The notes: generated from the sequence alone by a model not told the origin. Counted from the stretch's first letter, positions 5,858-54,363 are shown. The stretch is 64,000 nucleotides of DNA from Nanobdellota archaeon (GCA_042572295.1 JBHPFA010000002.1:180-64179); one strand, 5' to 3'. Translations and numbers: made by a program.

Positions 5858-8515
5858 ATGAATGAAGAGGAGCAAATTCTTGAAGAAAGGAAGAAAAAAG
5901 TAGTTACCTTTTTACAGCAAAAAAAGGAATGGATATACTATTTAGGGCTGGCAATAGTGACTTGGTTTGGAGCCATATTCATAAGAACAGCCAATATTGA
6001 TAAATTAAAGGATGTGACTGGAGGATGGACTCTTGCCCCAGATCTTGACCCTTACTTATTCTTAAGATGGGCTGGAGATATAGTTAGTAAAGGTAGCCTG
6101 CCAGCAATAGACATGATGAGGTACTTTCCTTTAGGATATGAAACTGCTGGAGAATTACCCCTTGTTCCTTATGGGATTGCCTATATTCATAAATTCTTAA
6201 CTTTATTCTCAAGCAATATAGACATATATTATTCTGCAATTATATTTCCAGTAGTTTTCTTTGCAGGAATGACTGTTGTCTTCTTTTTACTTGTTAGGAG
6301 AATTTTTAGGAACTATAAATTTTCAGATTTAACTGCCCTAATAGCTACAGCAATTTTTGTAGTTATTCCTGGTTTCATACATAGAACTGTTGCAGGAGTT
6401 CCAGAAAAGGAGAGCATTGGTTTCTTTTTTATGTTCCTAGCACTTTATTTTATGGTTGTTGCTTGGCAGCAAAAAGAATGGAAAAGGGCCGGATTGTTTG
6501 GATTATTGGCAGGACTTTCGACTGGTTTAATGGGGCTAGCTTGGGGAGGAGTTACATTTCCAATTGTAATTATTTCATTAGCTGCTTTTGTTTACTTTTT
6601 TACTGCAGGTAGTGATAAATTAAAATTCTTAACATACTTTGGGTGGATTGTAGGATTTACTGCATTATTGCTACCCCATGCGCGTTATGGTACTGGCCTT
6701 TTCATGTCTACAACAAGTGGTTTTTCTTATTTTGTATTAGCTCTTTATTTTGTTCATTTAATTATATTTAAAACAAATATTAAATCAAAATTAAATCTTA
6801 ATGAAACAAGAATTCCCAAAAAGCTTATTTCATTATTAACAATATTAGTTTTAGGATTATTAGTAGTCTTAATCTTAATGCCCCAAGTGATTGGAGGAGT
6901 AGCCAATGATGCTTATACACAATTGGTTAAACCTTTTGAAGGCAATAGATTCACAGTTACTGTTGCTGAAAACAATCGTCCTTTTTTTAATTCTTGGAAA
7001 GGATCTTTTGGAGCCTTCTTTTGGGTATTCTTTTTTGGATCAATCTTGCTTTTTTATGAAGGCTTAAAATATTTAAAATCTAAAGATAAAAATTGGTTAA
7101 CAGTAGCTTTTTCATTAATGTTATTTGGAGTTGTTTTTACAAGGATTAAACCAGATTCTATATTGAATGGGTCTAGTCCCCTGAGTGTATTTTTATTTAT
7201 AGGGAGTATGCTGTTATTTTTGGCAGGGTTATTTTACTTTTATTTTAAAGAAAAGGAAGATGCCACTATAGATGCAGGATTAATCTTAGCATTGGCATGG
7301 GTATTCTTTGGTTTGATATCTGCTAGAGGAGCTATCCGTCTTTTGTACTTTGTCTATCCAATTGTTGCATTGGTCGGTTCTTTTGCTACAGTGATAATTA
7401 GTAAAAAATTCTTTGAAATAAAAGACGAAGCGGGTAAAGTGATTATTGGAGTTTTAGCAATAACTATGATTCTAATCTCTTGTTGGAGTGTTTACACTTA
7501 TTCTCAATCTTCTTATAATGAAGTTGCTTATGGTAGTGTCCCTTCTGTATATAACGTTCAATGGCAAAAAGCTATGGGATGGGTTAGAGAAAATACCTCT
7601 GAAGATGCTGTTTTTGCACATTGGTGGGATTATGGTTATTGGGTACAAACCATTGGAGAAAGGGCCACAGTACTGGATGGGGGAAATAGCATTGTTTATT
7701 GGGATCATTTGCTTGGAAGACATGTGCTTACTGGAGAAACTGAAAAAGAAGCTTTTGAATTCTTGAAAACTCATGACGCAACTCATTTATTAATTGATTC
7801 TACAGACATCGGAAAATACTCTGCTTATAGTAGCATTGGATCAGACGAAAATTATGATAGATATAGCTATATTGCAACTTTCAATAATGATCCAAGTGCG
7901 ACACAAGAAAGAAGAAATGAAACATTGTTTGTTTTAAATGGTGGAGCAGTACTCGACGAAGATATTATTTGGAAAGACAAAATTTTTGCAGGAGGATCTG
8001 CAGGTATAGCTGGATTTATTTTACCTATTGAAAACAAAGAAAATGATTCATTATATGACAGATTAAAACAACCACAGGCAGTTATTGTGGATAAGGGTCA
8101 ACAATTACAAGTTCCAATTAAATGTGCTTATTTGGGTGAAAAGAAAATTTTTGAAGGAGAAGGGATAGATGGATGTATCTATCTAATTCCAAGCGTGACT
8201 AATCAAGGGATGCAAAATATAGGGGCAGGATTATGGTTAAGCCCTAGATTAATGAAATCATTACTTATCAAATTATATCTATTTGATGAAGGAGAAGACA
8301 TAAAATTAGCACACACTGAGAATCATCCAGTTATAGATGAATTAAACACTAATTATAACTTAAACTTGCAAGGAATAGCTTTGGTTAATGGAGGGTTAAT
8401 TGGCCCTATAAAGATCTGGGAATTAGACTATCCAGAAGATATTGAGACGAACCCAGAATATTTAGAAAGAGACTATCCAGAAGACAAACCAGGTTTATGG
8501 CAGGTGGGAAGATGA
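5858..8515 (+). CDS. aglB: Oligosaccharyltransferase AglB (STT3 family, GT-C)
   Basis: 885 aa, with a polytopic N-terminal half and a soluble C-terminal domain. The catalytic WWDYG motif is present as HWWDYGYWVQT. Confidence 0.9.
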   Translation: MNEEEQILEERKKKVVTFLQQKKEWIYYLGLAIVTWFGAIFIRTANIDKLKDVTGGWTLAPDLDPYLFLRWAGDIVSKGSLPAIDMMRYFPLGYETAGELPLVPYGIAYIHKFLTLFSSNIDIYYSAIIFPVVFFAGMTVVFFLLVRRIFRNYKFSDLTALIATAIFVVIPGFIHRTVAGVPEKESIGFFFMFLALYFMVVAWQQKEWKRAGLFGLLAGLSTGLMGLAWGGVTFPIVIISLAAFVYFFTAGSDKLKFLTYFGWIVGFTALLLPHARYGTGLFMSTTSGFSYFVLALYFVHLIIFKTNIKSKLNLNETRIPKKLISLLTILVLGLLVVLILMPQVIGGVANDAYTQLVKPFEGNRFTVTVAENNRPFFNSWKGSFGAFFWVFFFGSILLFYEGLKYLKSKDKNWLTVAFSLMLFGVVFTRIKPDSILNGSSPLSVFLFIGSMLLFLAGLFYFYFKEKEDATIDAGLILALAWVFFGLISARGAIRLLYFVYPIVALVGSFATVIISKKFFEIKDEAGKVIIGVLAITMILISCWSVYTYSQSSYNEVAYGSVPSVYNVQWQKAMGWVRENTSEDAVFAHWWDYGYWVQTIGERATVLDGGNSIVYWDHLLGRHVLTGETEKEAFEFLKTHDATHLLIDSTDIGKYSAYSSIGSDENYDRYSYIATFNNDPSATQERRNETLFVLNGGAVLDEDIIWKDKIFAGGSAGIAGFILPIENKENDSLYDRLKQPQAVIVDKGQQLQVPIKCAYLGEKKIFEGEGIDGCIYLIPSVTNQGMQNIGAGLWLSPRLMKSLLIKLYLFDEGEDIKLAHTENHPVIDELNTNYNLNLQGIALVNGGLIGPIKIWELDYPEDIETNPEYLERDYPEDKPGLWQVGR

Positions 8516-9495
8516 TGATACCAATAACAATCTTTTTAATAAGCTTTTTAGCGACCTTTATTTCATTACCTTATCTTATAAGATACTTAAAAAGAACAGG
8601 ATTGGCAGTAAAAGACCAAAATAAAAAGAACAAACCTTTAATCCCTTTTTCTGGAGGACTTTCAGTCATGGGAGGAATATTTTTTGGCCTTGTAGCCTAT
8701 ATCTTTACTAGGACTTTTTTTTATCAAGACTCAACGACTCTTCTTGCCTTTTTTGCAGCAATAACCACCATCTTATTGATCACTTTGGTAGGATTCATAG
8801 ATGATTCAATAGTCAAGAAAAATAAAGAGTCCTCTGCTGGACTAAAGCAATGGCAAAAACCTTTACTTACATTAATTGCAGCTCTTCCTTTGATAATAAT
8901 AAACGCTGGTACTACAAAGATGGCCATTCCATTTATAGGAGTTATCGATTTCGGAGTACTTTATCCACTGTTAATTGTACCAATAATAGTCCTAATAGCG
9001 GCAAATATGGTTAATCTACTTGCAGGATTTAATGGATTGGAATCTGGAATGGGGATTGTTTATGTGGGAATGTTAGGATTGTATGCTGCTTACAATCAAA
9101 GATTTATTGCAGCAGTTATTGCTTGGGCAACCTTTGCTGCTTTACTTGCGTTTTTAAGATTTAACTGGACCCCTGCAAAAATACTCCCTGGAGATTCACT
9201 CACTTATTTGCTTGGAGGAGTTTTAGCATGTATTGCTATTTTGGGGAACATGGAAAAAGCTGTAGGAATAATAGCTATCCCTTTTGCTATAGAATTTTTC
9301 TTAAAATCGAGAAGCAAATTTAAAGCGCACTCTTTTGGAAAATATAAAAATGGAAAAATAATCTCTTTAAATGATAAAAAAGTGCACTCTTTAACACACC
9401 TATTTACCAATAGTGGAAAGTTCACAGAAAAACAAATAGTTGTTTCTTTCATACTTTTTGAATTTATCTTCTCCCTTTTAATTTGGATAATATAG
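8497..9495 (+). CDS. Polyprenyl-phosphate HexNAc-1-phosphate transferase (MraY/WecA/GPT family; AglH-like)
   Basis: 332 aa, polytopic. GFIDDS and AANMVNLLAGFNGLESG are signature motifs of this family. It overlaps the aglB 3' end; ATG 8512 is an alternative start. Confidence 0.8.
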   Translation: MAGGKMMIPITIFLISFLATFISLPYLIRYLKRTGLAVKDQNKKNKPLIPFSGGLSVMGGIFFGLVAYIFTRTFFYQDSTTLLAFFAAITTILLITLVGFIDDSIVKKNKESSAGLKQWQKPLLTLIAALPLIIINAGTTKMAIPFIGVIDFGVLYPLLIVPIIVLIAANMVNLLAGFNGLESGMGIVYVGMLGLYAAYNQRFIAAVIAWATFAALLAFLRFNWTPAKILPGDSLTYLLGGVLACIAILGNMEKAVGIIAIPFAIEFFLKSRSKFKAHSFGKYKNGKIISLNDKKVHSLTHLFTNSGKFTEKQIVVSFILFEFIFSLLIWII

Positions 9496-9496
9496 G

Positions 9497-10744
9497 ATGG
9501 CGAACTTAAAAAAAACAGAAAATAGTTTTATTAGGGGAGGATTTGGCCTTTTAGTAGCATTTGGATTTTTTAGTTTTGCCAACTTTTTATACCACTTTTT
9601 TACAGCAAGAGTCTTAGGACCAGCAGATTATTCTATTATTGCCTCACTTTTTTCTTTGATTTATTTAATTGCAATAGGGGCCCAGTCTATCCAGACCACA
9701 ATCACAAAATTTGTTTCTGAGTTTAAAGCTAAAAAGGAGTATGGAAAGATTAATTCTCTTTTCAGTAGGTCTCTAAAGAAAATATCATTGTATGCGATAA
9801 TTATTTTTGTAGTCTTTATGATTCTAAGCCCCATAACTTCTTGGTTTTTACACGTACCCTTGACTCCAGTATTAATAACTGGAATATCGGTTATTTTTGC
9901 AATACTGCTTCCAATAAATAGGGGTTTTCTTCAAGGATTGCAAAAGTTTGGGTCCTTGGGAATGAACATGGTTTATGAAGGCCTATTAAAGATCCTAGTA
10001 GTGGTGCTTTTAGTTTATTTAGGATTTAGAGTTAATGGTGCAATGTCTGCAGTTGCAATATCTATAATGGCTGCATTTGTACTGTCATTTATTCCATTAA
10101 AACCTTTAATAACCAAAAAAAGGTCTCCGGTTGATTCAAAAAGATTGTATAAGTATAGTGGGCCAGTGATATTTACTATGCTGAGCATCACCGCCCTGTA
10201 TTCTTTTGATTTACTACTTGTAAAACATTTCTTAAGCCCCTTACAAGCAGGACATTATTCTGCATTATCTTTGCTAGGTAAGATAATCTTCTTTGGAGCA
10301 ACATCTATTGCTTTGATAATGTTTCCAAAAAGCGTAGAATTATTCTCTAAGAAAAAAGAGACCAAGGGAATATTAATGAAGTCTTTAGCCTTTGTGATGA
10401 TAACAGGAACTCTTACAATAGGAATCTACCATCTTTTTTCAGAAGAAATAATAAGTATTCTGTTTGGAGCATCTTATCTCCCAGTAGCCAATTTATTAAG
10501 TCTTTTTGGATTATTCATGCTCTTGCTTTCATTAATTTATATTTTAGCACTCTACAAATTAAGCATAGAAAAGAAAAAGTTTGTAGTGTTATTGGGGGCC
10601 TTTAACATATTAGAAATAGGATTAATTTGGGTATTCCATAATTCTATACTTCAAATATTGATAATGTTGAATATACTTAGCTTCACTCTTCTACTGTTAC
10701 TTTCAATATTTTTATATAAAACGTTTAAGGGGGTCAAAAGATAA
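9497..10744 (+). CDS. MOP-superfamily polysaccharide/oligosaccharide flippase (Wzx-like)
   Basis: 415 aa with about 12 hydrophobic segments. It sits directly after the initiating transferase and before the GT2 genes. Confidence 0.65.
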   Translation: MANLKKTENSFIRGGFGLLVAFGFFSFANFLYHFFTARVLGPADYSIIASLFSLIYLIAIGAQSIQTTITKFVSEFKAKKEYGKINSLFSRSLKKISLYAIIIFVVFMILSPITSWFLHVPLTPVLITGISVIFAILLPINRGFLQGLQKFGSLGMNMVYEGLLKILVVVLLVYLGFRVNGAMSAVAISIMAAFVLSFIPLKPLITKKRSPVDSKRLYKYSGPVIFTMLSITALYSFDLLLVKHFLSPLQAGHYSALSLLGKIIFFGATSIALIMFPKSVELFSKKKETKGILMKSLAFVMITGTLTIGIYHLFSEEIISILFGASYLPVANLLSLFGLFMLLLSLIYILALYKLSIEKKKFVVLLGAFNILEIGLIWVFHNSILQILIMLNILSFTLLLLLSIFLYKTFKGVKR

Positions 10745-10745
10745 A

Positions 10746-11525
10746 ATGAGGATTTCAATAATAATTCCTGCACATAATGAAGAAAAAAGAATAAAGAGAA
10801 CCCTTTTAGAATATGGCAGGTATTTTAGGGTCCTCAAGAACAAAAGATTATTAGATTTTGAAATAATAGTTGTATTAAATGCTTGTACTGATAATACTTT
10901 AAAAGAAGTACAAGGTGTGAAGAAAAAATTTAAAGAGATTAAGATATTAAACTTCAAGCCTGGTGGAAAGGGTTTTGCTATCATTAAAGGATTTAATGAT
11001 GCATTAAAAAGAAAAAATGATCTGATAGGTTTTGTCGACGCAGATATGGCCACAAAACCAAAAGATTTTCACGATTTAATCAAAGGAATCAAAAATTCTG
11101 ATGGAGCTATTGCTAGTAGGTATGTAAAAGGATCTAAAATATGCCCCCAACAGTCTTTGAGTAGGATAATTGCATCTAGAATGTTCAATTTTTTAATAAA
11201 GATCATTTTATTTTTGAACTATAAAGATACTCAATGTGGGGCAAAAATATTTAAGAGAGCAGTTATTAAAAGCTCAATGCCTAAATTAAACATTACAAAA
11301 TGGGCTTTTGATGTCAATCTCCTTTATGTTTGCAAAAGAAATAAATTTGATATAAAGGAATTGCCAACTATCTGGAGTGATAAAGAATATAGTAAACTAA
11401 ATCTTAAAGATTGCGGAATACAGATGTTTTTTTCATTAGTAAGGCTCAGGCTAATTTACTCCCCCTTTAAGGGAATAATCCGCGTTTATGACAACTTAAC
11501 AAGATTTTTAGGAAAAAGTCATTGA
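10746..11525 (+). CDS. GT2 glycosyltransferase, dolichyl-phosphate hexose synthase (Dpm1)-like
   Basis: RISIIIPAHNEEKRIKRTL, VVLNACTDNT and FVDADMATKP (DxD) form the GT-A family 2 pattern. Confidence 0.8.
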   Translation: MRISIIIPAHNEEKRIKRTLLEYGRYFRVLKNKRLLDFEIIVVLNACTDNTLKEVQGVKKKFKEIKILNFKPGGKGFAIIKGFNDALKRKNDLIGFVDADMATKPKDFHDLIKGIKNSDGAIASRYVKGSKICPQQSLSRIIASRMFNFLIKIILFLNYKDTQCGAKIFKRAVIKSSMPKLNITKWAFDVNLLYVCKRNKFDIKELPTIWSDKEYSKLNLKDCGIQMFFSLVRLRLIYSPFKGIIRVYDNLTRFLGKSH

Positions 11526-11535
11526 ATAATAAAAA

Positions 11536-12465
11536 ATGAAAAAAATAAGCTTTTTAATTGCAGCACATAATGAAGAAAAAATTATAGCTGAAACGCTAGA
11601 GAACTTACTTAAAGTGCCTTATAAAAATTATGAAGTGATTATTGGATTGGATGGTTGCACAGATAATACAGAAGAAATTGTAAAAAAATATTCTAAGAAA
11701 TTTAAAAAAATAAAATACTTCAAATTAAACCTAAGAAGAGGAAAACCAGAAGTTATTGATAATATAATAAAAAGGGCTACAGGGGAAATAATCATAATTA
11801 ACGACGCTGATTGGAAATTCAAAGTAGGTAGTAAAAAATTAATGGATAAGTTTATTTCAGTATTTGATAATCCTCAAGTGGGAGGGATTGTAGAATCTTT
11901 CCCAGTAGAATGGGAAAGAAGCAAATTAAACAAAGGAAACATTGGTTATTTAATGGTAGCTTATAGCTCTTACTTCTGGATAAACTTTCAGAAAGAGAAT
12001 CTTACAATTAAAAAGGGGGATCATTGGGTCATCAAAGACCCTTTCATGTTTTTAACAAATATATTCAGGAAAAAATTATATCAAAAAAATTTCTCCTTGG
12101 GAGATGATTTTGAAAGAACTAAGAATATCTTAGAAAAAGGTTATGACTTGGTGATTTTTAAGGATATTAATATGCCTAGAAGAATTGCAGTCTATAATAA
12201 AATTAGAGTTTTAGATATATTCAAACAAAAGATAAGAACAGCTATTGCAAGGAAGCAATTAAATGAGATTTCTCAAACAAAATTGCCTTTTTTGAATTAT
12301 TATATAAAATTAGGAAAGTATATGCTATTTAAATCGTGGAAAGAAGGTTTCAATGTGGGCTTTTTAATTTTACTTTGGATGTTTTTGACAGGTTTAGGAG
12401 AATTAATCTCTAAATTCAAGAAAGGTGATACTAAGAAAGGATGGGAATTGAGGATGAAAAGGTAA
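11536..12465 (+). CDS. GT2 glycosyltransferase
   Basis: ISFLIAAHNEEKIIAETLENLL, GLDGCTDNT and IIINDADWKF, plus a C-terminal TM segment. Confidence 0.7.
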   Translation: MKKISFLIAAHNEEKIIAETLENLLKVPYKNYEVIIGLDGCTDNTEEIVKKYSKKFKKIKYFKLNLRRGKPEVIDNIIKRATGEIIIINDADWKFKVGSKKLMDKFISVFDNPQVGGIVESFPVEWERSKLNKGNIGYLMVAYSSYFWINFQKENLTIKKGDHWVIKDPFMFLTNIFRKKLYQKNFSLGDDFERTKNILEKGYDLVIFKDINMPRRIAVYNKIRVLDIFKQKIRTAIARKQLNEISQTKLPFLNYYIKLGKYMLFKSWKEGFNVGFLILLWMFLTGLGELISKFKKGDTKKGWELRMKR

Positions 12466-12466
12466 A

Positions 12467-13630
12467 ATGAAGAAGATAACTATAATGTATGAGTTTTTAT
12501 CAGAACCGGGGGGTCTTGAAAGAGTATTAAAGTTTCAAGGCAAGGCATTATCTAAGCATGGTTTTGAGGTAATGTATGCTTTTGCATTTGTCGACCCTAA
12601 ATTGAAGAATTATCTGAAGGGGTTTAAAATAATTGAATATTCTCCTTCAATAATCAAAAATGAACCTTTACAAATAATGAGTAGTGTTTTCAAACCTTCC
12701 TCACTAAAACATTTAGAATCAAGCGATTTAATTATAGTTCATTCTTTTCCAGGATCTACTATTGCTAATAGGCTCTTTAGGAAGAAGAATATCCCCTATA
12801 TCCAATATATCCACCACCAACCCCAATTTCTTTACAATTCTAATATTCAATGGGCCAAGAATACTTGGAAAAGAAGAATTGCTTTTTTCTTAGGAAGAAT
12901 ATTTGGAAGATATCTAAGAATGAAAGATAAAAAAGCAGTCAAAGATGCTAAAGAGATATTAGTAAACAGCAATATGGTTAGAAAAATTGTAGGGCAAATC
13001 TATGGTAGAAGAGGAGTTTTATGCTATCCACCAATAGATCCACTATTTATGAAAAAGGTGAAAAATCCTCGTGCTACTCTGAAAAAATATGGGCTTTCTG
13101 AAGATTTCATACTTGCTTCTGGAAGAATAGTGAATCAGAAAAGATTTGATTATTTAATAGATGCTTTTTCATACATACAAAAAGATTTTCCTAAATTAAG
13201 TTTGGTATTTGCAGGAAAAGTTGATAAAAAATATCAAGGATTTTTAGAAAATCTCGCTAAAGAGAAGGGCATTAAGGACATAAAATTCTTGGGTTCCATA
13301 AAATTAAAAGAACTAAAAAATCTTTATTCAAAGGCAAAGATAACTGTATTAACTTGTCCAAAAGAATATTTTGGTTTAGTCCCTCCAGAAGCCATTGCTA
13401 ATGGGTGTCCAGTAATTGCTTGGAGAGATAATTCTGGTCCTCAAGAGACTGTTAAAGAGGGAATTAATGGTTTTTTGGCTAAGCCTTACAGTGCCAAAGA
13501 CTTCGGAGATAAAATGAAAAAGGCTTTAAGGAAAAAATGGAATAAACAAAAAATAAAGAAGAGCATATTAAGATTTTCTGAAAAAAATATTGAAAAAGAT
13601 TTCATAAAAGTAGTTAAAAAAGTATTATGA
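12467..13630 (+). CDS. GT4 (GT-B) glycosyltransferase
   Basis: The C-terminal EYFGLVPPEAIANGCPVIAW is the E-x7-E region typical of GT4 retaining transferases. Confidence 0.8.
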   Translation: MKKITIMYEFLSEPGGLERVLKFQGKALSKHGFEVMYAFAFVDPKLKNYLKGFKIIEYSPSIIKNEPLQIMSSVFKPSSLKHLESSDLIIVHSFPGSTIANRLFRKKNIPYIQYIHHQPQFLYNSNIQWAKNTWKRRIAFFLGRIFGRYLRMKDKKAVKDAKEILVNSNMVRKIVGQIYGRRGVLCYPPIDPLFMKKVKNPRATLKKYGLSEDFILASGRIVNQKRFDYLIDAFSYIQKDFPKLSLVFAGKVDKKYQGFLENLAKEKGIKDIKFLGSIKLKELKNLYSKAKITVLTCPKEYFGLVPPEAIANGCPVIAWRDNSGPQETVKEGINGFLAKPYSAKDFGDKMKKALRKKWNKQKIKKSILRFSEKNIEKDFIKVVKKVL

Positions 13631-13687
13631 CTGAATGTATACTTTCTAAGAGATAGAGTATAACAACATTTTTAAACCATTTTTATT

Positions 13688-15097: not shown

Positions 15098-15106
15098 AGT
15101 ATTCTT

Positions 15107-19735: not shown

Positions 19736-19841
19736 TTTTTTAATTGAGGGAATAATCTCACTAATTCTTATAAGAATAGGAAGTATTTATTCCTAACCTA
19801 TTATTAGCAATTACCTTTAAAAAGCTTCATTATTAGTTATT

Positions 19842-36518: not shown

Positions 36519-36519
36519 T

Positions 36520-37638: not shown

Positions 37639-37659
37639 ATAATCTCCATAAGCGATATG

Positions 37660-37667
37660 TTTATAAG
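37660..37667. promoter_or_regulatory. Single central TATA-like element (TTTATAAG) in the 50-nt ppd / AEP-transaminase divergent gap
   Basis: The box centre (37663.5) is 25.5 nt from the ppd start codon (CAT at 37636-37638) and 25.5 nt from ATG 37689. No other A/T box fits between the two genes. Confidence 0.4.
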
Positions 37668-37676
37668 TTTTTTTAT

Positions 37677-40496: not shown

Positions 40497-40530
40497 AGAT
40501 TTTGGAACATTAGTTCTCTTTTAAGCTTTT

Positions 40531-47969: not shown

Positions 47970-48432
47970 TTTTCCCCCCCTTTATTAAAAAATAAATTAA
48001 TGAAATTTTCTTGAGGTAAAAGCCCCTGTATATTGAATGAATTGTGTCTAAAAATAAATGAAATAATGCCCCTATTAAAACATAAATGAAAAAAGGATTG
48101 AGGAAGGACAATAAAATAATTACAATGAAGGATTCAATTGTGTGGAAAACATATAACCTTTTTCTTTTATTGATTATGCCTTCTCTACATTGTTTTAAAT
48201 AGGCTTTATAGAACCAATTGAAAGCTCTTCTAACATTCAGATCTTTTTTATTAATGACATAAATGAACCAATGGTCTACATCTATGAAAAATCCTGCTGC
48301 TATAATTATCAATGCTTGAAATGGGTTTATTAATTCAAAAAATATTAAAATTGCACTAAATATCAATGTTAGAACTAAGTGAGTTTTGGGTAACATCTTA
48401 TTCCTTTGTGATCTGTTGTATAATGTTTGCAA
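47950..48432 (-). CDS. DUF457/YdjM-like membrane-bound putative metal-dependent hydrolase
   Basis: 160 aa, 4 TM. The His/Asp positions KTHLVLT, FIDVDHW, VFHT and FHLFLDT resemble DUF457. It overlaps both neighbours. Confidence 0.4.
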   Translation of the reverse strand: MQTLYNRSQRNKMLPKTHLVLTLIFSAILIFFELINPFQALIIIAAGFFIDVDHWFIYVINKKDLNVRRAFNWFYKAYLKQCREGIINKRKRLYVFHTIESFIVIILLSFLNPFFIYVLIGALFHLFLDTIHSIYRGFYLKKISLIYFLIKGGKNGWRNL

Positions 48433-50152
48433 ATGCTGGTCTTGTGATTAATACTCCGATGCTGATTCCTATCAGAGTAGTTAATGCGAATCCCCGGATT
48501 ATTCCTGCTCCTGCCCACCACAGAGGTATCATTGCTACAAAGGTTGTTGCAAATGCTCCCATGATTATGAAAAAAGCTCTTTTGATCCTTTCTTTTAGAC
48601 TGAATCTAACTGCTTGTTTTCTAGCTTCATCAATAATTATTACTTGGTCATCCACTCCAGTACCTATTGCGGCAATTATTCCTGCAATACTTGCAAGATC
48701 TAGATTCCACCTAATTAATGCTGCAGCCCCAAGAATAATTACTACCTCACTAAGTAAAGTAAGTATTACTGGTAGGACTAATTTAATATCTCTATATCTA
48801 ACAAAAATAATTATTGCTACTGCAACAATTGCAGCCAAGCCTGCTAAGATTACATTTTTGATGAATTCTTTTCCCAATAAAGAAGATATAGAATCTAATT
48901 TCTCTATACTTAATTTAACTGGAAGGCTTCCTGTAACAAGAACTGTTTGAAGGTGTATCATGTTGGCCATGGCATCATCAAAGGCTTCCTGTTGTGTTGC
49001 TCCTGATCCTGGACCAGTGATTGCTATATTTGTTGTTGCTTTCCCTTTAAGGTTAGCACTTATTTGAAGGGTGTCTACAAGAGAATCATCCAAGTATAAA
49101 TCTAAAGGTTCACTTAAAATCCTACTCCCTGAGGCAGTTATATTTTCTGAAAGTTCTCCTGTTAGTTCTGCTTGTTTTTTTGCAGCTTTTTGGCTTAAGT
49201 AAATAACAAATTCAAAAGTACAGACTTGTCCTTGTCCAGAAGGTTGACATTCCCTTATACCTGCACATTTAGCATCATTTCTACAAACACTTGTTATGTC
49301 TTCTTTTCCGCCAATGAATACTGTATCATTCCCAATCTTTGCTTCAAACTTTCCTTGTTGTCCTATTAATTCTTCCAACTCTGCAGGTGTTGTTCCTGCG
49401 ACTTCAATAAGCATGAACGTATTTCCACTTAAATCTGTTGCAGATCTAACAATAACATCTGAAAGACCAAAAACATTAAGCCTTTCTTTAGTGATTGTAA
49501 TTAAGTCATCCATATCCCCTGTAGAGAAGTTCCCTACAGGTTTTACCAAAGCCTTTGATCCCCCTGACAAATCTAATCCTGCTTTAATATTAGACTTGGG
49601 AATAGGTCCTGCAGTCATATCTAAGGAAGTTGTAAAGAAAACATATTTTCCTTTATTTGTTTGTAAGTCCAACTTTACTTTAGGTTCTAATTTATTTTTC
49701 AAAGAATAAAATCCTGTTTGATCTTCAATTTCTTCTCCGTTTACTTCTAAAACAACAATCCCTTTAGCAAGACCTTCTGCACTTGCTTCTTTTAATACAG
49801 AAGTAATTGTGAGATTTTCATCAATTTCAAAACCTACTTTAAAACTTTCATATTCGAAGGTTTCATTTTCAGTTTCTATAGTCCACCCAATAGGTTCTAT
49901 TTCTTTAAAGATCTCATTTGTAACTTCACTGAATTCAATTAAAGAGGTTATTTTTTGCCCATTAACACTACTAATTATTTCTCCCCTTTCTATCCCCTCT
50001 AATGAAGCTTGAGAGTTGGGAGCAATAGTTTTTATTTGAACTCCTTCTTTAAAATAACCTGTTGGATTTATTGCAATAACTGATGCTATTAAAATGAATA
50101 CTACTAACCATAATCTAAATGTCATTCTCATTTTCTTTTCTCCATATACCAC
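48398..50152 (-). CDS. secD: Protein-export membrane protein SecD
   Basis: 584 aa: an N-terminal TM, a large extracytoplasmic domain and a 5-TM C-terminal block with AAIGTGVDDQVIIIDE. Confidence 0.8.
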   Translation of the reverse strand: MVYGEKKMRMTFRLWLVVFILIASVIAINPTGYFKEGVQIKTIAPNSQASLEGIERGEIISSVNGQKITSLIEFSEVTNEIFKEIEPIGWTIETENETFEYESFKVGFEIDENLTITSVLKEASAEGLAKGIVVLEVNGEEIEDQTGFYSLKNKLEPKVKLDLQTNKGKYVFFTTSLDMTAGPIPKSNIKAGLDLSGGSKALVKPVGNFSTGDMDDLITITKERLNVFGLSDVIVRSATDLSGNTFMLIEVAGTTPAELEELIGQQGKFEAKIGNDTVFIGGKEDITSVCRNDAKCAGIRECQPSGQGQVCTFEFVIYLSQKAAKKQAELTGELSENITASGSRILSEPLDLYLDDSLVDTLQISANLKGKATTNIAITGPGSGATQQEAFDDAMANMIHLQTVLVTGSLPVKLSIEKLDSISSLLGKEFIKNVILAGLAAIVAVAIIIFVRYRDIKLVLPVILTLLSEVVIILGAAALIRWNLDLASIAGIIAAIGTGVDDQVIIIDEARKQAVRFSLKERIKRAFFIIMGAFATTFVAMIPLWWAGAGIIRGFALTTLIGISIGVLITRPAFANIIQQITKE

Positions 50153-51042
50153 TTAAGCAATGAAGCATTCATCAACCAAGTAGCAATCAAATCTACTGAA
50201 AGCCCTATAGATAATACAAGGAATACTTGTTTCAAAACGGGTGAAACAACTAAAAAGTATGCAACTAAAACTGCAACTAATGAAGTGATAGTCATTGTTA
50301 AACCAGTTTTTAATGCTCCCAAAAATCTTTGATTTAAGGGTTCTTCTTTTCTTTTCAAAACTCTTGTTGTAAGCAAAATATCTGTATCTACACTGTAACC
50401 GATTAACATTAAGAATGCTGCAAGCCCTGCCGTAGATATCCTTATACCTGCAAAATTGATTATTGCTAGTGGAACGACTAAATCCATGAATGCTGATAAT
50501 ACTACATAAGTACTTGGTAATGCTGATCTAAAGATTATGAAGACTACAATAACCATGAAGATAAAAGCCAGAACTACTGAGAAAATTAATTCCCTATAGA
50601 AAGAATTACTTAAGGAAGATCCTGTAAACTCTAAACTTGAGTTTTCAGTATCTAATTCATAATCTAATAATTTTTCAACAGCAGATTTTAGTTCATTATG
50701 ATCTCCTTGAGTTTCTAGAGTTATTGCAATTTGCTTGCCACTTGTAAAATCAGTTAGTTTCCTTAAGATAATGTCTTCAAATTCAGGCTTTAGTTCTTTT
50801 TCTAAATCCTCTAGTGAAAGGCCTTCACCAAAAATAGTTAAGGTTGTTCCCCCTGTAAGAGTCACATCTTTATTTACAATATCTCCAGTGTTTGCATAAA
50901 AAACAAATAGGTAAATTAGAGCTACAGAAATCAATAAAGCTGGAACTATTAAGAATAATTTGTAATACTTATCGTAATTAAATCTGAAGGGTTCTTTCTT
51001 TACCTCTTCTTTAGTTTCATTATGACTTTCTTCTTGATCCAT
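50128..51042 (-). CDS. secF: Protein-export membrane protein SecF
   Basis: 304 aa. The RND-like TM block carries LIGYSVDTDILLTTRVLKRKE. It overlaps secD by 25 nt. Confidence 0.8.
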   Translation of the reverse strand: MDQEESHNETKEEVKKEPFRFNYDKYYKLFLIVPALLISVALIYLFVFYANTGDIVNKDVTLTGGTTLTIFGEGLSLEDLEKELKPEFEDIILRKLTDFTSGKQIAITLETQGDHNELKSAVEKLLDYELDTENSSLEFTGSSLSNSFYRELIFSVVLAFIFMVIVVFIIFRSALPSTYVVLSAFMDLVVPLAIINFAGIRISTAGLAAFLMLIGYSVDTDILLTTRVLKRKEEPLNQRFLGALKTGLTMTITSLVAVLVAYFLVVSPVLKQVFLVLSIGLSVDLIATWLMNASLLKWYMEKRK

Positions 51043-51094: not shown

Positions 51095-51166
51095 GCGCCG
51101 ATCATCTAATGGCTAGGATAGTTGCCTTCCAAGCAACTTGTCTGGGTTCGAATCCCAGTCGGCGCA
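51095..51166 (+). tRNA. tRNA-Gly (anticodon TCC at 51128-51130)
   Basis: Hand-folded cloverleaf. Acceptor GCGCCGA/TCGGCGC, D-stem ATCT/GGAT, anticodon stem GTTGC/GCAAC with loop CTTCCAA, T-arm CTGGG-TTCGAAT-CCCAG, discriminator A. No encoded CCA. Confidence 0.9.
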
Positions 51167-51198
51167 TGTTTTTCTCCAAATATGCCATTAAGAATAAA

Positions 51199-51273
51199 CG
51201 AGACTGGAAGGATTCGAACCTTCGACCTACGCCTTAGGAGAGCGCCGCTCTATCCAGACTGAGCTACAGTCCC
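51199..51273 (-). tRNA. tRNA-Arg (anticodon CCT; plus-strand AGG at 51236-51238)
   Basis: The reverse complement folds as acceptor GGGACTG/CAGTCTC (one G-U), D-arm GCTC-AGTCTGGATA-GAGC, anticodon loop CTCCTAA and T-arm GAAGG-TTCGAAT-CCTTC. Confidence 0.9.
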
Positions 51274-51295
51274 ATGAATTAACTTAAGAAGTTGG

Positions 51296-51389: not shown

Positions 51390-52265
51390 ATGTGGGCTCG
51401 TCAGGCATGTGATAAAACAAAAATGTTTGTAAGATTAAAAAAACTTTGGGGACAGAAGAGATATCTTAAAAGATTTAGCCAGATAACAAAATATTTTACT
51501 TGTAGAGTTAAATCTATGGAGCTTGCAGTGCTTTATGCTTGTAACCAAAATTGTCCAGGGTGTTATGCTGGTGACTTGAAAAGTCCGGCCTACCTAACTA
51601 GGGATCAAATTAGAGAGATTATGAGGAAGTATAGGCCCTTCCATGTAAACATTACGGGTGGAGAGCCCCTTTTAAGAAAAGATATTTTTGAGATTATAGA
51701 AGGGATGCCGAAAGGAGTTGTAATCAGCCTTGTTACGAATGGGAAACTACTTACTAAAGAAAAATTAAGAAAATTGAAAAAGGCAGGACTTAATACACTT
51801 CAATTAAGCTATGGGGCAAATTATGATAACAATCTTGAAGTCATTAAGTCCAAAGCTGCAAGAGGAGTAAATATTTGTTTAAGTGTCACAAATACAAAGA
51901 AAAATAAAAAATATATTGAACAGGCCATTAAAGAGGCTAAATTAAATAAATGGCATGTTCTGTACAATCTTCCCTCTGGAAGTATAGCTAAGAATTTTGA
52001 TAGAGAGACTTACTTCAAATACAGAAATAATCCACTTATTAGGGAAGATAATATGTTCTGGGCTGGATGGAATAAGTGTCCTGCCGGAAACGAAAAAATA
52101 TATGTAACTGCAAAAAATGAATTAATGCCTTGTGATAGGTTACATGATGTATATCCTAATCTAAAAACCATGAGAAAAGAATTTAAACGTAAACCTTGGT
52201 GTAGTAGATTAGGAGATGTAAGAAATGAAGAATCCACTTGTGTCGGTTGTGCTTCCTGCACATAA
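51390..52265 (+). CDS. Radical SAM enzyme (small, non-B12 type)
   Basis: AVLYACNQNCPGCYAGD provides CxxxCxxC. ITGGEPLLRKD is the SAM-binding GGE motif. There are C-terminal Cys residues (CPAGN, MPCD, CVGCASC). The TATA-like GGTTTAAAAGTG lies ~30 nt upstream of ATG 51390. Confidence 0.7.
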   Translation: MWARQACDKTKMFVRLKKLWGQKRYLKRFSQITKYFTCRVKSMELAVLYACNQNCPGCYAGDLKSPAYLTRDQIREIMRKYRPFHVNITGGEPLLRKDIFEIIEGMPKGVVISLVTNGKLLTKEKLRKLKKAGLNTLQLSYGANYDNNLEVIKSKAARGVNICLSVTNTKKNKKYIEQAIKEAKLNKWHVLYNLPSGSIAKNFDRETYFKYRNNPLIREDNMFWAGWNKCPAGNEKIYVTAKNELMPCDRLHDVYPNLKTMRKEFKRKPWCSRLGDVRNEESTCVGCASCT

Positions 52266-53043
52266 TGAAGAAAAATATATTGGAGTATGTATTGAATCAC
52301 TTCTTAAACAGTCATATAATCCTATTGAGATATTTATAGTAAATGATGGTAGTACAGATAACACTGCTGAGGTTGTTAAAAAATATCCAGTAACACTTTT
52401 AAGCCAAAAAAAGAGTGGACCTGGCGCGGCATGGAACCTTGGAATGAAGCATGCTAAGGGTAAGGTCTTAATGTTCTGGGCATCAGACCATATCTATGGT
52501 GAGAATTACATTAAAGATTTAATAAAGCCAATTCTTGAAGGAGATTGTGTAAGGACGCTGCACTTAAAAGAAAAGATAGCCAATAAAAACAAACTTTGGG
52601 GTAGAGCCTGGGGAGAAAGAGATTATACAAGTATGAAAGACAAAGGGGTAAATACTGCTTCCCTCACATTAAGAGAAGTTTATGAAAAATCTGGAGGATT
52701 TGATCCTACAAAAGGCTATGCAGATGACCAATCAATTTATCATAAAATGGGCATTAAAGCAAAATTGATAGATACTGATGTGCAGCATTTTAATCCTGAA
52801 TCTTTAAAAGAGACATTTGCCCAAACAGTTTGGATTGCCACCTCCCACAAACATCCTTTGTTGATTGTCTTGGGATTGCCCTTATTTCCAGCTTATGCAG
52901 TCTACAAATCAATAAAGCACCTAAGAAAAGATCCTTATATTCATTTCTTCTGGTTTTTGCCATTCTTTTATTCAGTAAAATATTTAGGGTTCTTTACTGG
53001 GGCATTAAGAAAAATGATCTTTGGAAAGGTTACTAGGATATAA
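52225..53043 (+). CDS. GT2 glycosyltransferase
   Basis: VSVVLPAHNEEKYIGVCIESLLKQ and IVNDGSTDNT. It starts 41 nt inside the rSAM gene. Confidence 0.8.
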   Translation: MKNPLVSVVLPAHNEEKYIGVCIESLLKQSYNPIEIFIVNDGSTDNTAEVVKKYPVTLLSQKKSGPGAAWNLGMKHAKGKVLMFWASDHIYGENYIKDLIKPILEGDCVRTLHLKEKIANKNKLWGRAWGERDYTSMKDKGVNTASLTLREVYEKSGGFDPTKGYADDQSIYHKMGIKAKLIDTDVQHFNPESLKETFAQTVWIATSHKHPLLIVLGLPLFPAYAVYKSIKHLRKDPYIHFFWFLPFFYSVKYLGFFTGALRKMIFGKVTRI

Positions 53044-53053
53044 AATTAATATT

Positions 53054-53638
53054 TTATTTTTTTCTTATCTCAACTAACATTGTTGGACCAAATGGCAGTT
53101 TTAGATGAGATAATAAGTATAACATCTGATTAATTAATCCAGGCAAATTAGGTGTTTTACCTGATGTGAATGTTCTAATCAAATATAATGGAATCAAGGC
53201 TCCAAAAAGAAATTTAATCTTATATTTGATATGTAAATTTCTATTTTTCTTAAAAAATTTTCTTATATCTCTGCTGTGGTATCTTCGATAATGTCCAAGA
53301 GATTTGTCATAATCTGACCAAAGCCATTTGTAGGCTGGCACTGTAATAATAACCTTTCTTTTTGAAACTCTTATAGACTCAAGTAATGCTTTTTCCCAAT
53401 CTTCAATATGCTCTATAACATCAGATAAAATTACTGTATCAAAAGAATTGTTTTCATAAGGTAAGTCTGTTGCTCCTTCATCAATGTTTACTGCATTTGG
53501 AATCATATGGGTGCCGCAACCAACATTTAGGCAACTTCCTTTAATTAACTTCTCTATTATCTCCCTTTTATATCTAAAATAAAAATTTGATTTTCCCTCT
53601 AACCAATTTATATTAACTTTGTCCATTTCAATTTCCAC
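53054..53638 (-). CDS. Class I SAM-dependent methyltransferase
   Basis: CLNVGCGTHMIPNAVNID and FDTVILSDVIEHIEDW. Confidence 0.7.
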   Translation of the reverse strand: MEIEMDKVNINWLEGKSNFYFRYKREIIEKLIKGSCLNVGCGTHMIPNAVNIDEGATDLPYENNSFDTVILSDVIEHIEDWEKALLESIRVSKRKVIITVPAYKWLWSDYDKSLGHYRRYHSRDIRKFFKKNRNLHIKYKIKFLFGALIPLYLIRTFTSGKTPNLPGLINQMLYLLSHLKLPFGPTMLVEIRKK

Positions 53639-54363
53639 CAGAGTTTAAACATATATAACAAAATATTGGATTCTCTTTTTATACTTAACTTCGTCCATTG
53701 CATCTCCTTCCATTTAATAGGGATTATTCTTATCCTATAACCCAACCTGGATGCATAAATTAACATTTCTGCATCCCAAAACATACTTCTTTGTTTATTT
53801 CCAATTCCAGTATTCCTCAAAATGTGCTTGATTGTATTTTTATGAAAGGCTTTGAAACCACAAAAATGATCTCTACTGCCTCTTGAAATTTCAAAAAACA
53901 TAAACTTTGTAAGATAATTTAAAAATTTGCTTGCCCACCACCTTTTTCTAGTTCTTTTTGTTTTACTCAACCGATTGTATCTGTCACCGATGACTACTGT
54001 CTTTTCATCAACCAAGGAAAATAACTTTGGTAAGTCAGTTATATCTGTAGAAAGATCTGTATCTGTAAAGGCAAGTACATTGCCCTTGGCATGTTTAAAG
54101 CTTCTGATTAAATTTTCTCTTCTTGTTGGTTTTTTGCCTTCGTAGTTAATAACTCTTACCTCCTTGAAGGATTTAGCTAGATTTTCTGCTATTTTTCTTG
54201 TGTTATCCTCGGAGCAGTCATTTACTATGATTAGTTCAAATGAGAATTTTGGATCTTTTTTCCTATGGTCCCTTAGAGAATATAGAATCTTCTGCATGTT
54301 CTCCTTTAAACATCGTTCTTCATTATAACAGGGAACAAACAGGCTAAACATTTTATTTATCAT
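53608..54363 (-). CDS. GT2 glycosyltransferase
   Basis: FSLFVPCYNEERCLKENMQKI, IIVNDCSEDNT and AFTDTDLSTD. Confidence 0.8.
   Translation of the reverse strand: MINKMFSLFVPCYNEERCLKENMQKILYSLRDHRKKDPKFSFELIIVNDCSEDNTRKIAENLAKSFKEVRVINYEGKKPTRRENLIRSFKHAKGNVLAFTDTDLSTDITDLPKLFSLVDEKTVVIGDRYNRLSKTKRTRKRWWASKFLNYLTKFMFFEISRGSRDHFCGFKAFHKNTIKHILRNTGIGNKQRSMFWDAEMLIYASRLGYRIRIIPIKWKEMQWTKLSIKRESNILLYMFKLWWKLKWTKLI

Follow-up and report, generated by a model that had tools for sequence, protein, structure and literature searches.

The archaeal gene clusters closest to the locus described here are the agl clusters of Haloferax volcanii, HVO_1517-1531 (aglJ-aglM) and HVO_2046-2061 (agl5-agl15), which comprise about 15-16 open reading frames (ORFs; PMC3871713). 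Two of its modules have counterparts in other systems: the capsule heptose pathway of Campylobacter jejuni follows the same enzyme logic as the one (PMC10680097), and for the other, fusions of phosphoenolpyruvate mutase (Ppm) to an NTP_transf_3 domain and the activation of 2-aminoethylphosphonate (AEP) as its cytidine monophosphate (CMP) conjugate are established (PMC6697681). Among the archaeal genomes of RefSeq, just 1.6% were found to have Ppm (PMC8942020). Here we describe an island of ~48 kb at positions 5858-54363 of a 64,000-nucleotide stretch from a Nanobdellota archaeon (GCA_042572295.1, JBHPFA010000002.1:180-64179), the whole of which is called the window hereafter. DPANN archaea combine minimal genomes with a life attached to hosts. 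We consider it likely that the island is a cell-surface glycosylation locus of such an archaeon, that it occupies a conserved slot reaching from SecY-...-SpoIIM to a YdjM-like-SecDF/RNA polymerase (RNAP)-ribosomal-protein block, and that its modules are inherited and swapped as units. As originally predicted, the island is unusually large among agl clusters: it holds ~40 glycan genes in a genome of roughly 1 Mb, compared with about 15-16 ORFs in Haloferax volcanii (PMC3871713).

Extent and gene content

Every window ORF of at least 100 amino acids (aa) was searched with Pfam profiles, 43 such ORFs lying between 5858 and 54363; an NCBIfam profile search covered thirty island ORFs, and tRNAs were located with ARAGORN and Rfam. 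The island comprises 43 protein genes and two tRNAs and is 98% coding. Glycan-related families were found in 40 of the 43 consecutive island ORFs and in none of the ~22 flanking ORFs, a clustering far beyond chance. The exceptions are SecD, SecF and a small protein with four transmembrane (TM) segments. The latter had been assigned to DUF457; that it is no glycan gene stands, while the family call at 47950-48432 comes down to a sub-threshold YdjM match (E 0.009).

All family counts given in the original prediction were reproduced by our hidden Markov model searches. Among the glycosyltransferases (GTs) there are seven GT2 domains (10746, 11536, the C-terminal half of 16705-18630, 30554, 44212, 52225 and 53608), two GT4 enzymes (12467, 18605), one GT9 (the N-terminal half of 16705-18630) and one GT25 (23701). 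Three GT-C enzymes were counted (STT3/AglB at 5858, the protein at 15107-16708, and PMT_2 at 46146), the second of which was confirmed by the annotation of homologues, an AlphaFold (AF2) model and Foldseek. One Glycos_transf_4 initiating transferase (8497) and two MOP/Polysacc_synt flippases (9497, 40531) are accompanied by four short-chain dehydrogenases (SDRs; 24613, 26974, 42161, 45008) and one RmlC-like cupin (26393). Five S-adenosylmethionine (SAM) methyltransferases (20882, 21668, 31380, 42975, 53054) and six radical SAM (rSAM) enzymes complete the inventory, the latter being B12-binding (13688, 22297, 32799, 34276), of the SPASM type (19842) or small (51390), and all six carry CxxxCxxC.

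The island had been described as wedged between two ribosomal-protein blocks. Such blocks do lie on both sides, yet they do not abut it directly: the left gap amounts to 4.3 kb and holds SecY, a YidC-like protein, prefoldin, phosphoribosyl pyrophosphate synthetase and SpoIIM, the right gap to 2.5 kb with PIN, tRNA-Leu, RpoF and DUF655. The relatives of the window's SecY are all DPANN metagenome-assembled genomes (MAGs) labelled Woesearchaeota, Pacearchaeota or Nanoarchaeota, the best being 78% identical. Seven window proteins are identical to NCBI proteins labelled 'Nanoarchaeota archaeon', and for none of the seven did any further relative reach 90% identity. The source genome is of the small DPANN type, a Nanoarchaeota (Woese/Pacearchaeota-type) MAG of roughly 1 Mb. 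Because single contigs of relatives measure only 0.75-0.83 Mb, we estimate the island at roughly 4-6% of the genome, which bears out the claim that it is a large investment for a small genome.

The AglB-linked core

The left part of the island consists of the following genes, in which relatives' loci are designated by L and a number, percentages refer to amino acid identity, and lower-case letters distinguish enzymes of one family.

5858-8515 (+): AglB/STT3 oligosaccharyltransferase, GT-C no. 1 (PF02516, 53.5 bits; cut-off 24.5)
8497-9495 (+): polyprenyl-phosphate HexNAc-1-P transferase of the AglH/WecA/MraY family (GPT), initiating (PF00953, 115.8 bits)
9497-10744 (+): MOP-family (Wzx/AglR-like) flippase 1, conserved core (PF01943, 37.7 bits; PF13440, 36.1 bits)
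10746-11525 (+): GT2 a (PF00535, 70.3 bits; 51-54% orthologues in L001, L006, L027, L164)
11536-12465 (+): GT2 b (PF00535, 81.1 bits; 44% in L164)
12467-13630 (+): GT4 a (PF00534, 120 bits; 36% in L164)
13688-15097 (+): B12-binding rSAM enzyme 1 (B12-rSAM1), class B, probable methylase (PF02310, 89 bits; PF04055, 70 bits)
15107-16708 (-): ArnT/PMT-like GT-C no. 2 (no Pfam match; from annotation of homologues, AF2 and Foldseek)
16705-18630 (-): fusion of a heptosyltransferase-like GT9 (PF01075, residues 75-323) to a GT2 domain (PF00535, residues 353-506)
18605-19735 (-): GT4 b (PF00534, 120.1 bits; 39-41% in L164, L167)
19842-20885 (+): rSAM/SPASM enzyme (PF04055, 64.6 bits; PF13186, 56.2 bits; 60-65% orthologues in L164, L167)
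20882-21643 (-): SAM methyltransferase 1 (Methyltransf_25/31/11; 65% in L167)
21668-22285 (-): SAM methyltransferase 2 (Methyltransf_23/11)
22297-23625 (-): B12-binding rSAM enzyme 2 (PF04055, 93.3 bits; PF02310, 62.5 bits; 67% in L167)
23701-24564 (+): GT25 (PF01755, 39.8 bits; cut-off 24; 56% in L167)

What marks an agl cluster is found here: AglB with its WWDYG motif and, directly downstream, the GPT, MOP and GT2/GT4 genes. In AglB, named 'STT3 domain-containing protein' at NCBI (MFC1685660.1), WWDYG stands at residues 589-593 behind about 12 N-terminal TM segments, and D62-L-D64 follows TM1. The GPT is 72% identical in the closest relative, L001. Orthologues of flippase 1 adjoin AglB-GPT in L001, L006, L037 and L045, and the aglB-side arrangement of initiating transferase, flippase and GTs is kept in L001, L006, L027, L045 and L164. 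B12-rSAM1 has its CxxxCxxC at residue 209, and its best NCBIfam match is HpnJ with 249 bits, below the cut-off of that family. The protein at 23701-24564 is named 'glycosyltransferase family 25 protein' at NCBI. The GT9::GT2 fusion is a single ORF of 641 aa in the window and is represented by separate genes in L164 (6256-8483) and L169 (7671-9998).

The 533-aa membrane protein at 15107-16708 has no Pfam or NCBIfam match, no significant BLASTP match to the window's PMT_2 protein, and a profile of its family found nothing among PDB sequences. At NCBI, a protein of identical sequence goes under the name 'ArnT family glycosyltransferase'; PF13231 was detected in about 25 of the 112 homologues, among which W61-D63-E64 in the first loop is invariant. 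The AF2 model (predicted local distance difference test, pLDDT, 93.2; predicted template modelling score, pTM, 0.90) gave a Foldseek list in which the top 24 PDB matches are all GT-C enzymes, including STT3, AglB, PglB, ALG9/12, ArnT and Pmt4. With a model of such high confidence, the predicted fold is that of a GT-C enzyme. A Wzy polymerase was considered for this protein as well and could be dismissed, since the model matches GT-C folds only.

A conserved slot with variable content

The island is delimited by the following anchors:

4690-5550 (+): SpoIIM-family membrane protein, left anchor, in relatives always ahead of AglB/GPT (PF01944, 65 bits)
47950-48432 (-): small 4-TM protein, weakly YdjM/DUF457-like, right anchor (YdjM, E 0.0093, sub-threshold)
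48398-51042 (-): SecD with N-terminal PDZ domains, and SecF, right anchor (PF02355, PDZ)

Relatives' loci were compared within 10 kb on either side of an anchor gene, in a SecY-anchored sample of 80 loci and a SecD-anchored sample of 80 metagenomic loci, 30 of which have at least 5 kb downstream of SecD. The order S5-L30-SecY-YidC-SpoIIM runs on into AglB and/or GPT in ~25 of the 80 SecY-anchored loci, several of which extend further into MOP1 and GT2a, and SpoIIM precedes AglB/GPT in L164 too. On one side of the SecD-anchored loci a PIN-SecF-SecD order recurs, or an RpoF-DUF655-S13-S4-S11-RpoD block followed by SecF-SecD. Downstream of SecD, glycan genes were found in 25 of the 30 loci, with differing content drawn from GT2, MOP, PMT_2, SDR, C-methyltransferase, HddA/GmhB, B12-rSAM, Ppm and CDP-alcohol phosphotransferase (CDP-OH) families, and a YdjM-like gene comes after SecD in 12 of the 30. 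In L051, SpoIIM-GPT is directly followed by YdjM-like-SecD-SecF, so that the anchors abut and no island lies between them. Conserved flanking genes around differing content are what characterises a variable locus at a fixed site.

Long contigs extend this picture. Window positions 4690-20885 have a collinear counterpart on the Pacearchaeota contig Ga0172379_10000113 (L164). On contig SRR27710297_18307 (L167/L168; 48.6 kb), a single run of 29 kb holds 23 island genes, 19 with identities of 50-69%, and spans the GT-C, GT25, heptose, phosphonate and MOP2 segments. On a JGI contig (3300072015), SecD is followed by ~20 kb with CDP-OH, SDRs, a gene like that of PDB 6VO6, LicD, MOP, B12-rSAM and Ppm. 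The original prediction had reckoned with the chance that the same genes are scattered in relatives; L164, L167/L168 and the SecY and SecD loci point the other way and demonstrate co-inheritance.

In two relatives the conserved glycan core also includes genes of QueC-like and nucleoside 2-deoxyribosyltransferase-like type (L164, 2476-3195 and 5776-6222; L169, 6746-7426 and 8568-8978); both are absent from the window. SecD of the window (48398-50152, -) has PDZ matches within its N-terminal 170 residues, and many relatives align only from about residue 108-127 onward, so this N-terminal extension appears to be variable or divergent.

The putative heptose and methyl-sugar modules

The heptose module covers 24613-30516:

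24613-25551 (+): GDP-fucose-synthase-like SDR, candidate heptose C4 reductase (NF047922, 143 bits, below cut-off)
25554-26282 (-): xylose-isomerase-like TIM-barrel protein, putative sugar isomerase/epimerase (PF01261, 41.3 bits; no NCBIfam match)
26393-26962 (+): RmlC-fold 3,5-epimerase (PF00908, 138.6 bits)
26974-27912 (+): short-chain dehydrogenase SDR2, 6VO6-like (PDB 6VO6, 336 bits)
27914-28456 (+): GmhB-like HAD-IIIA heptose-1,7-bisphosphate phosphatase (NF006506, 151 bits, cut-off 178; TIGR01662, 85.9 bits, passing 44.6)
28453-30516 (+): fusion of HddC (sugar-1-P guanylyltransferase), CBS and HddA (heptose-7-P kinase) (PF00483, CBS, GHMP kinase)

SDR2 is 54.6% identical to PDB 6VO6 (165 of 302 aligned residues), presumably the GDP-heptose C4-dehydrogenase Cj1427. 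The epimerase at 26393 matches the Campylobacter jejuni GDP-4-keto-heptose epimerases (PDB 7m14, 8dcl, 8db5) with 114-120 bits, compared with at most 96 for dTDP-rhamnose RmlC, and the SDR at 24613 finds GDP-fucose synthases as its best PDB matches (98 bits). At the level of homology, the trio of C4 dehydrogenase, 3,5-epimerase and C4 reductase is thus present. The best NCBIfam matches of the fusion stay below the equivalog cut-offs (HddA 201 of 600 bits, HddC 154 of 300), and its PDB matches are 4n3o, a heptose-7-P kinase (165 bits), and 6jq8 of the 6-deoxy-manno-heptose pathway (118 bits).

The HddC::CBS::HddA protein is 687-690 aa long; L167 has a 60% identical fusion of 690 aa (10945-13017), and in other relatives, e.g. 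L124, nucleotidyltransferase and kinase are separate genes. Transketolase genes, split or whole, and once a transaldolase gene, lie in or beside homologous cassettes (L082, 20265-21466; L165, 4678-7972; the JGI contig), and neither gene occurs in the window. The relatives' transketolases might supply sedoheptulose-7-P for heptose or serve a sugar-branching step that depends on thiamine pyrophosphate.

A second sugar module lies next to the right anchor, and a block of four genes beyond it:

42161-42982 (-): RmlD-like NDP-4-keto-6-deoxyhexose reductase (PF04321, 161.9 bits; TIGR01214, 154 bits, below the cut-off of 224)
42975-44210 (-): NDP-hexose 3-C-methyltransferase of the TcaB9/MtmC type with zinc-binding N-terminus (PF08421, PF08484, Methyltransf_23)
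44212-45018 (-): GT2 d (PF00535, 64.6 bits)
45008-46069 (-): SDR, epimerase/4,6-dehydratase-like (PF01370, 151.1 bits; best NCBIfam matches GalE and dTDP-glucose dehydratase, both sub-threshold)
46146-47969 (-): PMT_2/ArnT-family GT-C no. 3 (PF13231, 61.2 bits; cut-off 26.1)
51095-51274: two tRNA genes, tRNA-Gly(TCC) (+) and tRNA-Arg(CCT) (-), separating SecF from the four-gene block (ARAGORN, Rfam)
51390-52265 (+): small rSAM enzyme 6 (PF04055, 63 bits; 61% in L167)
52225-53043 (+): GT2 e (PF00535, 108.3 bits; 61% in L167)
53054-53638 (-): SAM methyltransferase 5 (Methyltransf_11, 36.1 bits; 63% in L167)
53608-54363 (-): GT2 f, polyprenyl-phosphate sugar synthase-like (ArnC/GtrB/DPM-like; PF00535, 87.1 bits; 59% in L167)

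The methyltransferase at 42975 matches PDB 4rv9, a D-mycarose 3-C-methyltransferase, with 252 bits and TcaB9 with 214 bits. The GT-C enzyme at 46146 bears a DE motif at residue 53 and is named 'ArnT family glycosyltransferase' at NCBI (MFC1685695.1). For GT2 f, the best NCBIfam matches are PgfS, ArnC and dolichyl-phosphate hexose transferase, all sub-threshold. In L167, the block of rSAM6, GT2 e, methyltransferase 5 and GT2 f sits between the heptose and phosphonate modules, and for this reason we regard 51390-54363 as part of the island system that was displaced past SecDF.

The phosphonate cassette

Between the two sugar modules, the following genes were found:

30554-31435 (+): GT2 c (PF00535, 128.9 bits)
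31380-32003 (+): SAM methyltransferase 3 (Methyltransf_23, 52.4 bits)
32023-32802 (-): divergent CDP-OH-like membrane protein (PF01066, 30.1 bits; cut-off 22)
32799-34274 (-): B12-binding rSAM enzyme 3 (PF04055, 77.7 bits; PF02310, 48.5 bits)
34276-35766 (-): B12-binding rSAM enzyme 4, Sden_1168/PhpK-like methyltransferase family (NF038361)
35808-36518 (-): stand-alone nucleotidyltransferase, PntC/LicC-like (PF12804, 61.7 bits; PF00483, 56.4 bits; 50-58% in L082, L168)
36520-37638 (-): phosphonopyruvate decarboxylase, Ppd (TIGR03297, 442 bits; cut-off 312.5)
37677-38789 (+): 2-aminoethylphosphonate aminotransferase, AEPT (TIGR03301, 395.8 bits; cut-off 360.8)
38775-40496 (-): fusion of Ppm to an NTP_transf_3 (PntC-type) cytidylyltransferase (TIGR02320, 338.6 bits; cut-off 319.55)
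40531-42111 (-): MOP-family flippase 2 (PF01943, 86.2 bits)

Ppm carries EDKIFPKRNS at residue 130, which fits the Ppm motif EDKXXXXXNS (PMC6697681). Its C-terminal domain (PF12804, 36.7 bits, residues 321-439) matches LicC (PDB 1jyk), and by homology nucleotidyltransferases of the PntC type would be both fused to Ppm and encoded near it. LicD was not found in the window. B12-rSAM4 matches NF038361 (Sden_1168 'P-methyltransferase') with 373.8 bits (E 1.4e-111), below the cut-off of 575; it is 57-62% identical in DPANN loci and 50-55% in bacterial loci. For B12-rSAM3 the identity is 69% to its counterparts in L082 and L168, and 58% to the one of the Omnitrophota locus L166.

The CDP-OH protein shows the motif DxxDGxxA[K/R]...GGxYxDxxx[H/S/other], which was also seen at L081 15027-15701, L082 4712-5464 and L117 19511-20263. 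Its gene abuts a B12-rSAM gene in six contexts (the window, L082, L117, L165, L166 and L168); the coding ends overlap in some of these loci, and the pairing occurs in archaeal and bacterial loci alike. We consider the protein a candidate transferase for a CMP-activated phosphonate. Because some homologues of B12-rSAM4 are fused to NTP_transferase or Aminotran_5 and because of the abutment with the CDP-OH gene, the B12-rSAM enzymes would be expected to act on the phosphonate branch.

The cassette is collinear in L082 at 53-69% identity. The Omnitrophota locus L166 (5310-15129) contains MOP, Ppm::NTP, Ppd, two orthologous B12-rSAMs, AEPT, NTP, a further B12-rSAM and CDP-OH. Between window and L166 the two B12-rSAMs are 50% and 58% identical, and Ppm, Ppd and AEPT only 33-37%. 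This better conservation across domains suggests that the rSAM pair may move as a sub-cassette of its own. Flippase 2 has a 54% orthologue beside CDP-OH in L168. Orthology of the Ppm-side flippases holds for L168 only and fails for L082 and L166, where non-orthologous MOP genes take the position of flippase 2.

One might speculate further, and we put this forward as a tentative idea that is rather unlikely to hold in full: the cassette at 32023-42111 would make an undescribed methylated aminoethylphosphonate, C- or P-methylated on the CMP intermediate by the two B12-rSAMs, and the CDP-OH protein would attach it to a lipid-linked or membrane acceptor, while the unit would travel between DPANN archaea and bacteria that are ultra-small or belong to candidate phyla (Omnitrophota, Riflebacteria). 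If so, it would provide a phosphatase-resistant, lineage-variable surface head group for episymbionts that are auxotrophic for cobalamin and scavenge lipids. A literature search returned no description of a locus like the present one, of an rSAM/CDP-OH phosphonate cassette or of such an rSAM reaction, which is weak negative evidence.

Proposed function and alternative readings

Families, motifs, the fold of the GT-C enzyme at 15107-16708, synteny and co-inheritance are the observations on which a glycosylation locus can be proposed; for the substrates, the order of the steps and the choice between protein and lipid acceptors we infer the following scheme. The HexNAc-1-P transferase would prime dolichyl phosphate at the cytoplasmic face, and the GT2, GT4, GT9 and GT25 enzymes would extend the glycan with ordinary donors as well as with an epimer of GDP-heptose and a 3-C-methyl-6-deoxyhexose. 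A MOP protein would then flip the glycan, and AglB would transfer it to Asn residues of surface proteins. The part from ~5.9 to 20.9 kb, with AglB, GPT, MOP1, GT2/GT4/GT9, the ArnT-like GT-C, B12-rSAM1 and rSAM/SPASM, appears to be the lineage-conserved core. GDP-D-glycero-D-manno-heptose would be made via GmhB and HddC::CBS::HddA and then be subjected to Campylobacter-type C4 oxidation, 3,5-epimerisation and C4 reduction; the 3-C-methyl-6-deoxyhexose donor set would supply a branched methyl sugar. Ppm, Ppd and AEPT are predicted to make AEP, which the Ppm-fused and the stand-alone nucleotidyltransferases would activate as a CMP conjugate; two B12-rSAMs probably methylate the AEP branch, and the CDP-OH protein would transfer the phosphonate to a lipid or glycan acceptor, beside the second flippase. 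The two ArnT/PMT-type GT-Cs and GT2 f, a likely Dol-P-sugar synthase, probably add residues at the outer face, as AglD/AglR/AglS do in Haloferax, and the five SAM methyltransferases would decorate the product.

Several points weigh against a surface glycosylation locus of this kind. Most sugar-enzyme assignments across the island fall below the NCBIfam equivalog cut-offs, and the window holds no S-layer gene. Among the loci compared, which reach 10 kb to either side, both anchors flank the site on one contig only in this window and, at zero length, in L051. The heptose module is incomplete within the window, as it lacks GmhA, the first heptose enzyme: no SIS-domain ORF occurs anywhere in the 64 kb, and GmhA may be encoded elsewhere in the genome. 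In the CDP-OH protein the fourth Asp is not conserved, its place being taken by His, Ser or other residues across homologues. The canonical signature of CDP-alcohol transferases is presumably DxxDGxxAR...GxxxDxxxD, and since its fourth catalytic Asp is absent, the reaction of this protein is uncertain.

It had also been argued that two flippases and three GT-C enzymes indicate at least two separate lipid-linked pathways, one for an N-glycan and one for another glycoconjugate. On this reading the second product, independent of the AglB-dependent N-glycan, might be a heptose glycolipid resembling the core of lipopolysaccharide (LPS) or a phosphonoglycan/phosphonolipid, with a flippase and GT-C of its own. 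The positional basis of this argument holds: the two MOP genes are mutually only 25% identical, one is a core gene, the other adjoins the phosphonate cassette, as does its orthologue in L168, and a MOP gene accompanies the Ppm cassette of L082, of L166 and of the JGI contig as well. A CDP-alcohol-transferase-like enzyme could, moreover, make a phosphonolipid. However, orthology among these Ppm-side MOP genes is confined to L168, the window ORFs include no member of the Wzy, Wzz, Wza or ABC exporter families, and the sole candidate ORF for Wzy turned out to be a GT-C. What falls short is the proof of a second product: the single N-glycan pathway of Haloferax volcanii has AglB, the GT-C AglS, the flippase-type AglR and the Dol-P-Man synthase AglD (PMC3871713), and because one pathway already uses several such proteins, additional GT-Cs and flippases do not prove a second end product. 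Two pathways are plausible but not required, and we regard them as somewhat doubtful. Another reading would separate 32-40.5 kb from its surroundings, as a secondary-metabolite cluster of the phosphonate/phosphinate antibiotic type that merely lies inside a glycan locus. B12-rSAMs of the PhpK/Sden_1168 type and Fom3-like chemistry do belong to antibiotic pathways (PMC8158854), and Fom1 is likewise a fusion of Ppm and cytidylyltransferase (PMC6697681). Yet an AEP aminotransferase paired with a nucleotidyltransferase of the PntC type is the hallmark of phosphonyl tailoring at the cell surface (PMC6697681), a membrane CDP-OH protein occurs in every cassette context, often with a flippase, LicD or GTs, and resistance, export and peptide-ligase genes are absent, which makes an antibiotic cluster improbable.

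The origin of the genes raises a different question, namely whether the island is a recent mobile or bacterial genomic island, or a chimera of bacterial DNA and an archaeal contig, produced in assembly or binning. GT9, GT25, HddA/HddC, RmlC/D and Ppm are families familiar above all from the LPS and capsule loci of bacteria, SDR2 has the close match to PDB 6VO6 given above, and the phosphonate cassette is shared with an Omnitrophota bacterium. The composition of the island, in contrast, equals that of its flanks (GC 0.322 and 0.330; GC at third codon positions 0.248 and 0.240; relative synonymous codon usage r = 0.97), the window ORFs include no integrase or transposase, and flanking direct repeats are missing, only short or paralogue-derived repeats being found. 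Archaeal housekeeping genes lie on both sides within a single contig, and independent assemblies of relatives have the same arrangement. No two paralogues of the island exceed 42% identity, which rules out recent duplication in situ. Nearest neighbours were sampled for three genes. The GT-C family of 15107-16708 has 112 detectable homologues, of which the named ones are all DPANN except for one 'Paceibacterota' label, so that this family looks almost DPANN-specific; the top 120 homologues of SDR2 are 56-70% identical, all named ones being Nanoarchaeota, Pacearchaeota or 'archaeon'; and the best matches of B12-rSAM4 reach 62-66%, with archaeal contexts in L081 and L082 (both 62%) and named matches lower down in Promethearchaeia (60%), Riflebacteria (55%) and Omnitrophota (50%). 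Taken together, a recent island or chimera is highly improbable. The original prediction of an old, ameliorated acquisition from bacteria agrees with the composition; its bacterial source does not find the same support, as the named neighbours are DPANN for two of the three genes and mixed for the third. Judged by these relationships, inter-domain exchange has clearly happened and the island genes belong to a DPANN-resident gene pool. Since the composition matches the flanks, mobility genes are absent and the sampled neighbours are largely archaeal, a bacterial origin would be ancient at best.

Neighbouring genes

Outside the island, a PIN gene (54480-55016, -) deserves mention: in several metagenomic relatives PIN lies close upstream of SecF, and in the window the two genes are separated by a pair of tRNAs and the block of four glycan genes. 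Further right, a lone 5S rRNA gene was found (61979-62090, +; 68 bits); the window contains neither a 16S nor a 23S gene. An FmrO-family gene (62949-63809, -; 63.5 bits), which we take to belong to an aminoglycoside-resistance-type 16S rRNA methyltransferase family, has homologues near SecY in L043 (~17828) and L056 (~17711). The ORFs at 60752-61936 (+, 394 aa) and 62148-62948 (+, 266 aa) have no family match even at E = 1; the latter has about 4 TM segments.

Comparison with known systems

With Haloferax, the island shares aglB-linked GTs, a flippase-type MOP protein, nucleotide-sugar enzymes and methyltransferases (PMC3871713, PMC5867893), as well as a glycan gene content that varies among relatives (PMC5867893). 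Counterparts of the second GT-C AglS and of the Dol-P-sugar synthase, which act outside the cell in Haloferax, are predicted in the island. It differs in that initiation would fall to a GPT of the AglH type and not to AglJ, in its heptose, 3-C-methyl-sugar and phosphonate cassettes and six rSAM enzymes, and in lacking the low-GC or mobile-element signature of the variable Haloferax cluster (PMC5867893).

The heptose genes resemble the Campylobacter jejuni pathway (GmhA, HddA, GmhB, HddC, Cj1427/Cj1430/Cj1428; PMC10680097) in that dehydrogenase, epimerase and reductase homologues are there, beside a candidate HddA-like kinase, GmhB-like phosphatase and HddC-like guanylyltransferase. Here, however, the host is an archaeon, capsule export machinery is missing, HddC and HddA are fused through CBS, and GmhA is not part of the locus. 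As in Pnt clusters (PMC6697681), Ppm with EDKxxxxxNS is fused to NTP_transf_3 and stands with Ppd and AEPT in a glycan neighbourhood, while the DPANN host, the two conserved B12-rSAMs and, in place of LicD, a non-canonical CDP-OH protein abutting a B12-rSAM set the cassette apart; 'radical SAM' is not mentioned in PMC6697681 and once in PMC8942020, for Campylobacter. A nucleotidyl-activated phosphonate beside a B12-rSAM methylase also recalls Fom1/Fom3 of fosfomycin.

The four cobalamin-dependent enzymes would be needed by a cell that presumably cannot make cobalamin. Together with the genome share of 4-6% and a conserved core with swappable cassettes, this suggests strong, diversifying selection on surface chemistry. 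The locus bears on the surface determinants of host recognition and virus evasion in DPANN archaea, adds to the very few phosphonate pathways known from archaea, and offers candidates for further work in the 6VO6-like dehydrogenase and the cross-domain Ppm::PntC/B12-rSAM/CDP-OH cassette.

Bacterial O-antigen and capsule loci occupy fixed chromosomal sites, where conserved flanks enclose variable cassettes of GT, flippase and nucleotide-sugar genes. Conserved flanks around cassettes that vary among relatives are found here too, with the difference that Wzy, Wzz and an export apparatus are missing, AglB lies inside the locus and the composition is not anomalous; moreover, the variability was compared between relatives at the species or genus level, and not between strains as in serotype loci. 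An aglB-linked glycosylation cluster with variable content is a kind of locus already known (PMC5867893). What sets this instance apart is its scale relative to the genome, the fixed slot between housekeeping blocks in a DPANN lineage, and the combination of Campylobacter-type heptose chemistry, a branched methyl sugar and an rSAM-rich phosphonate in one place.

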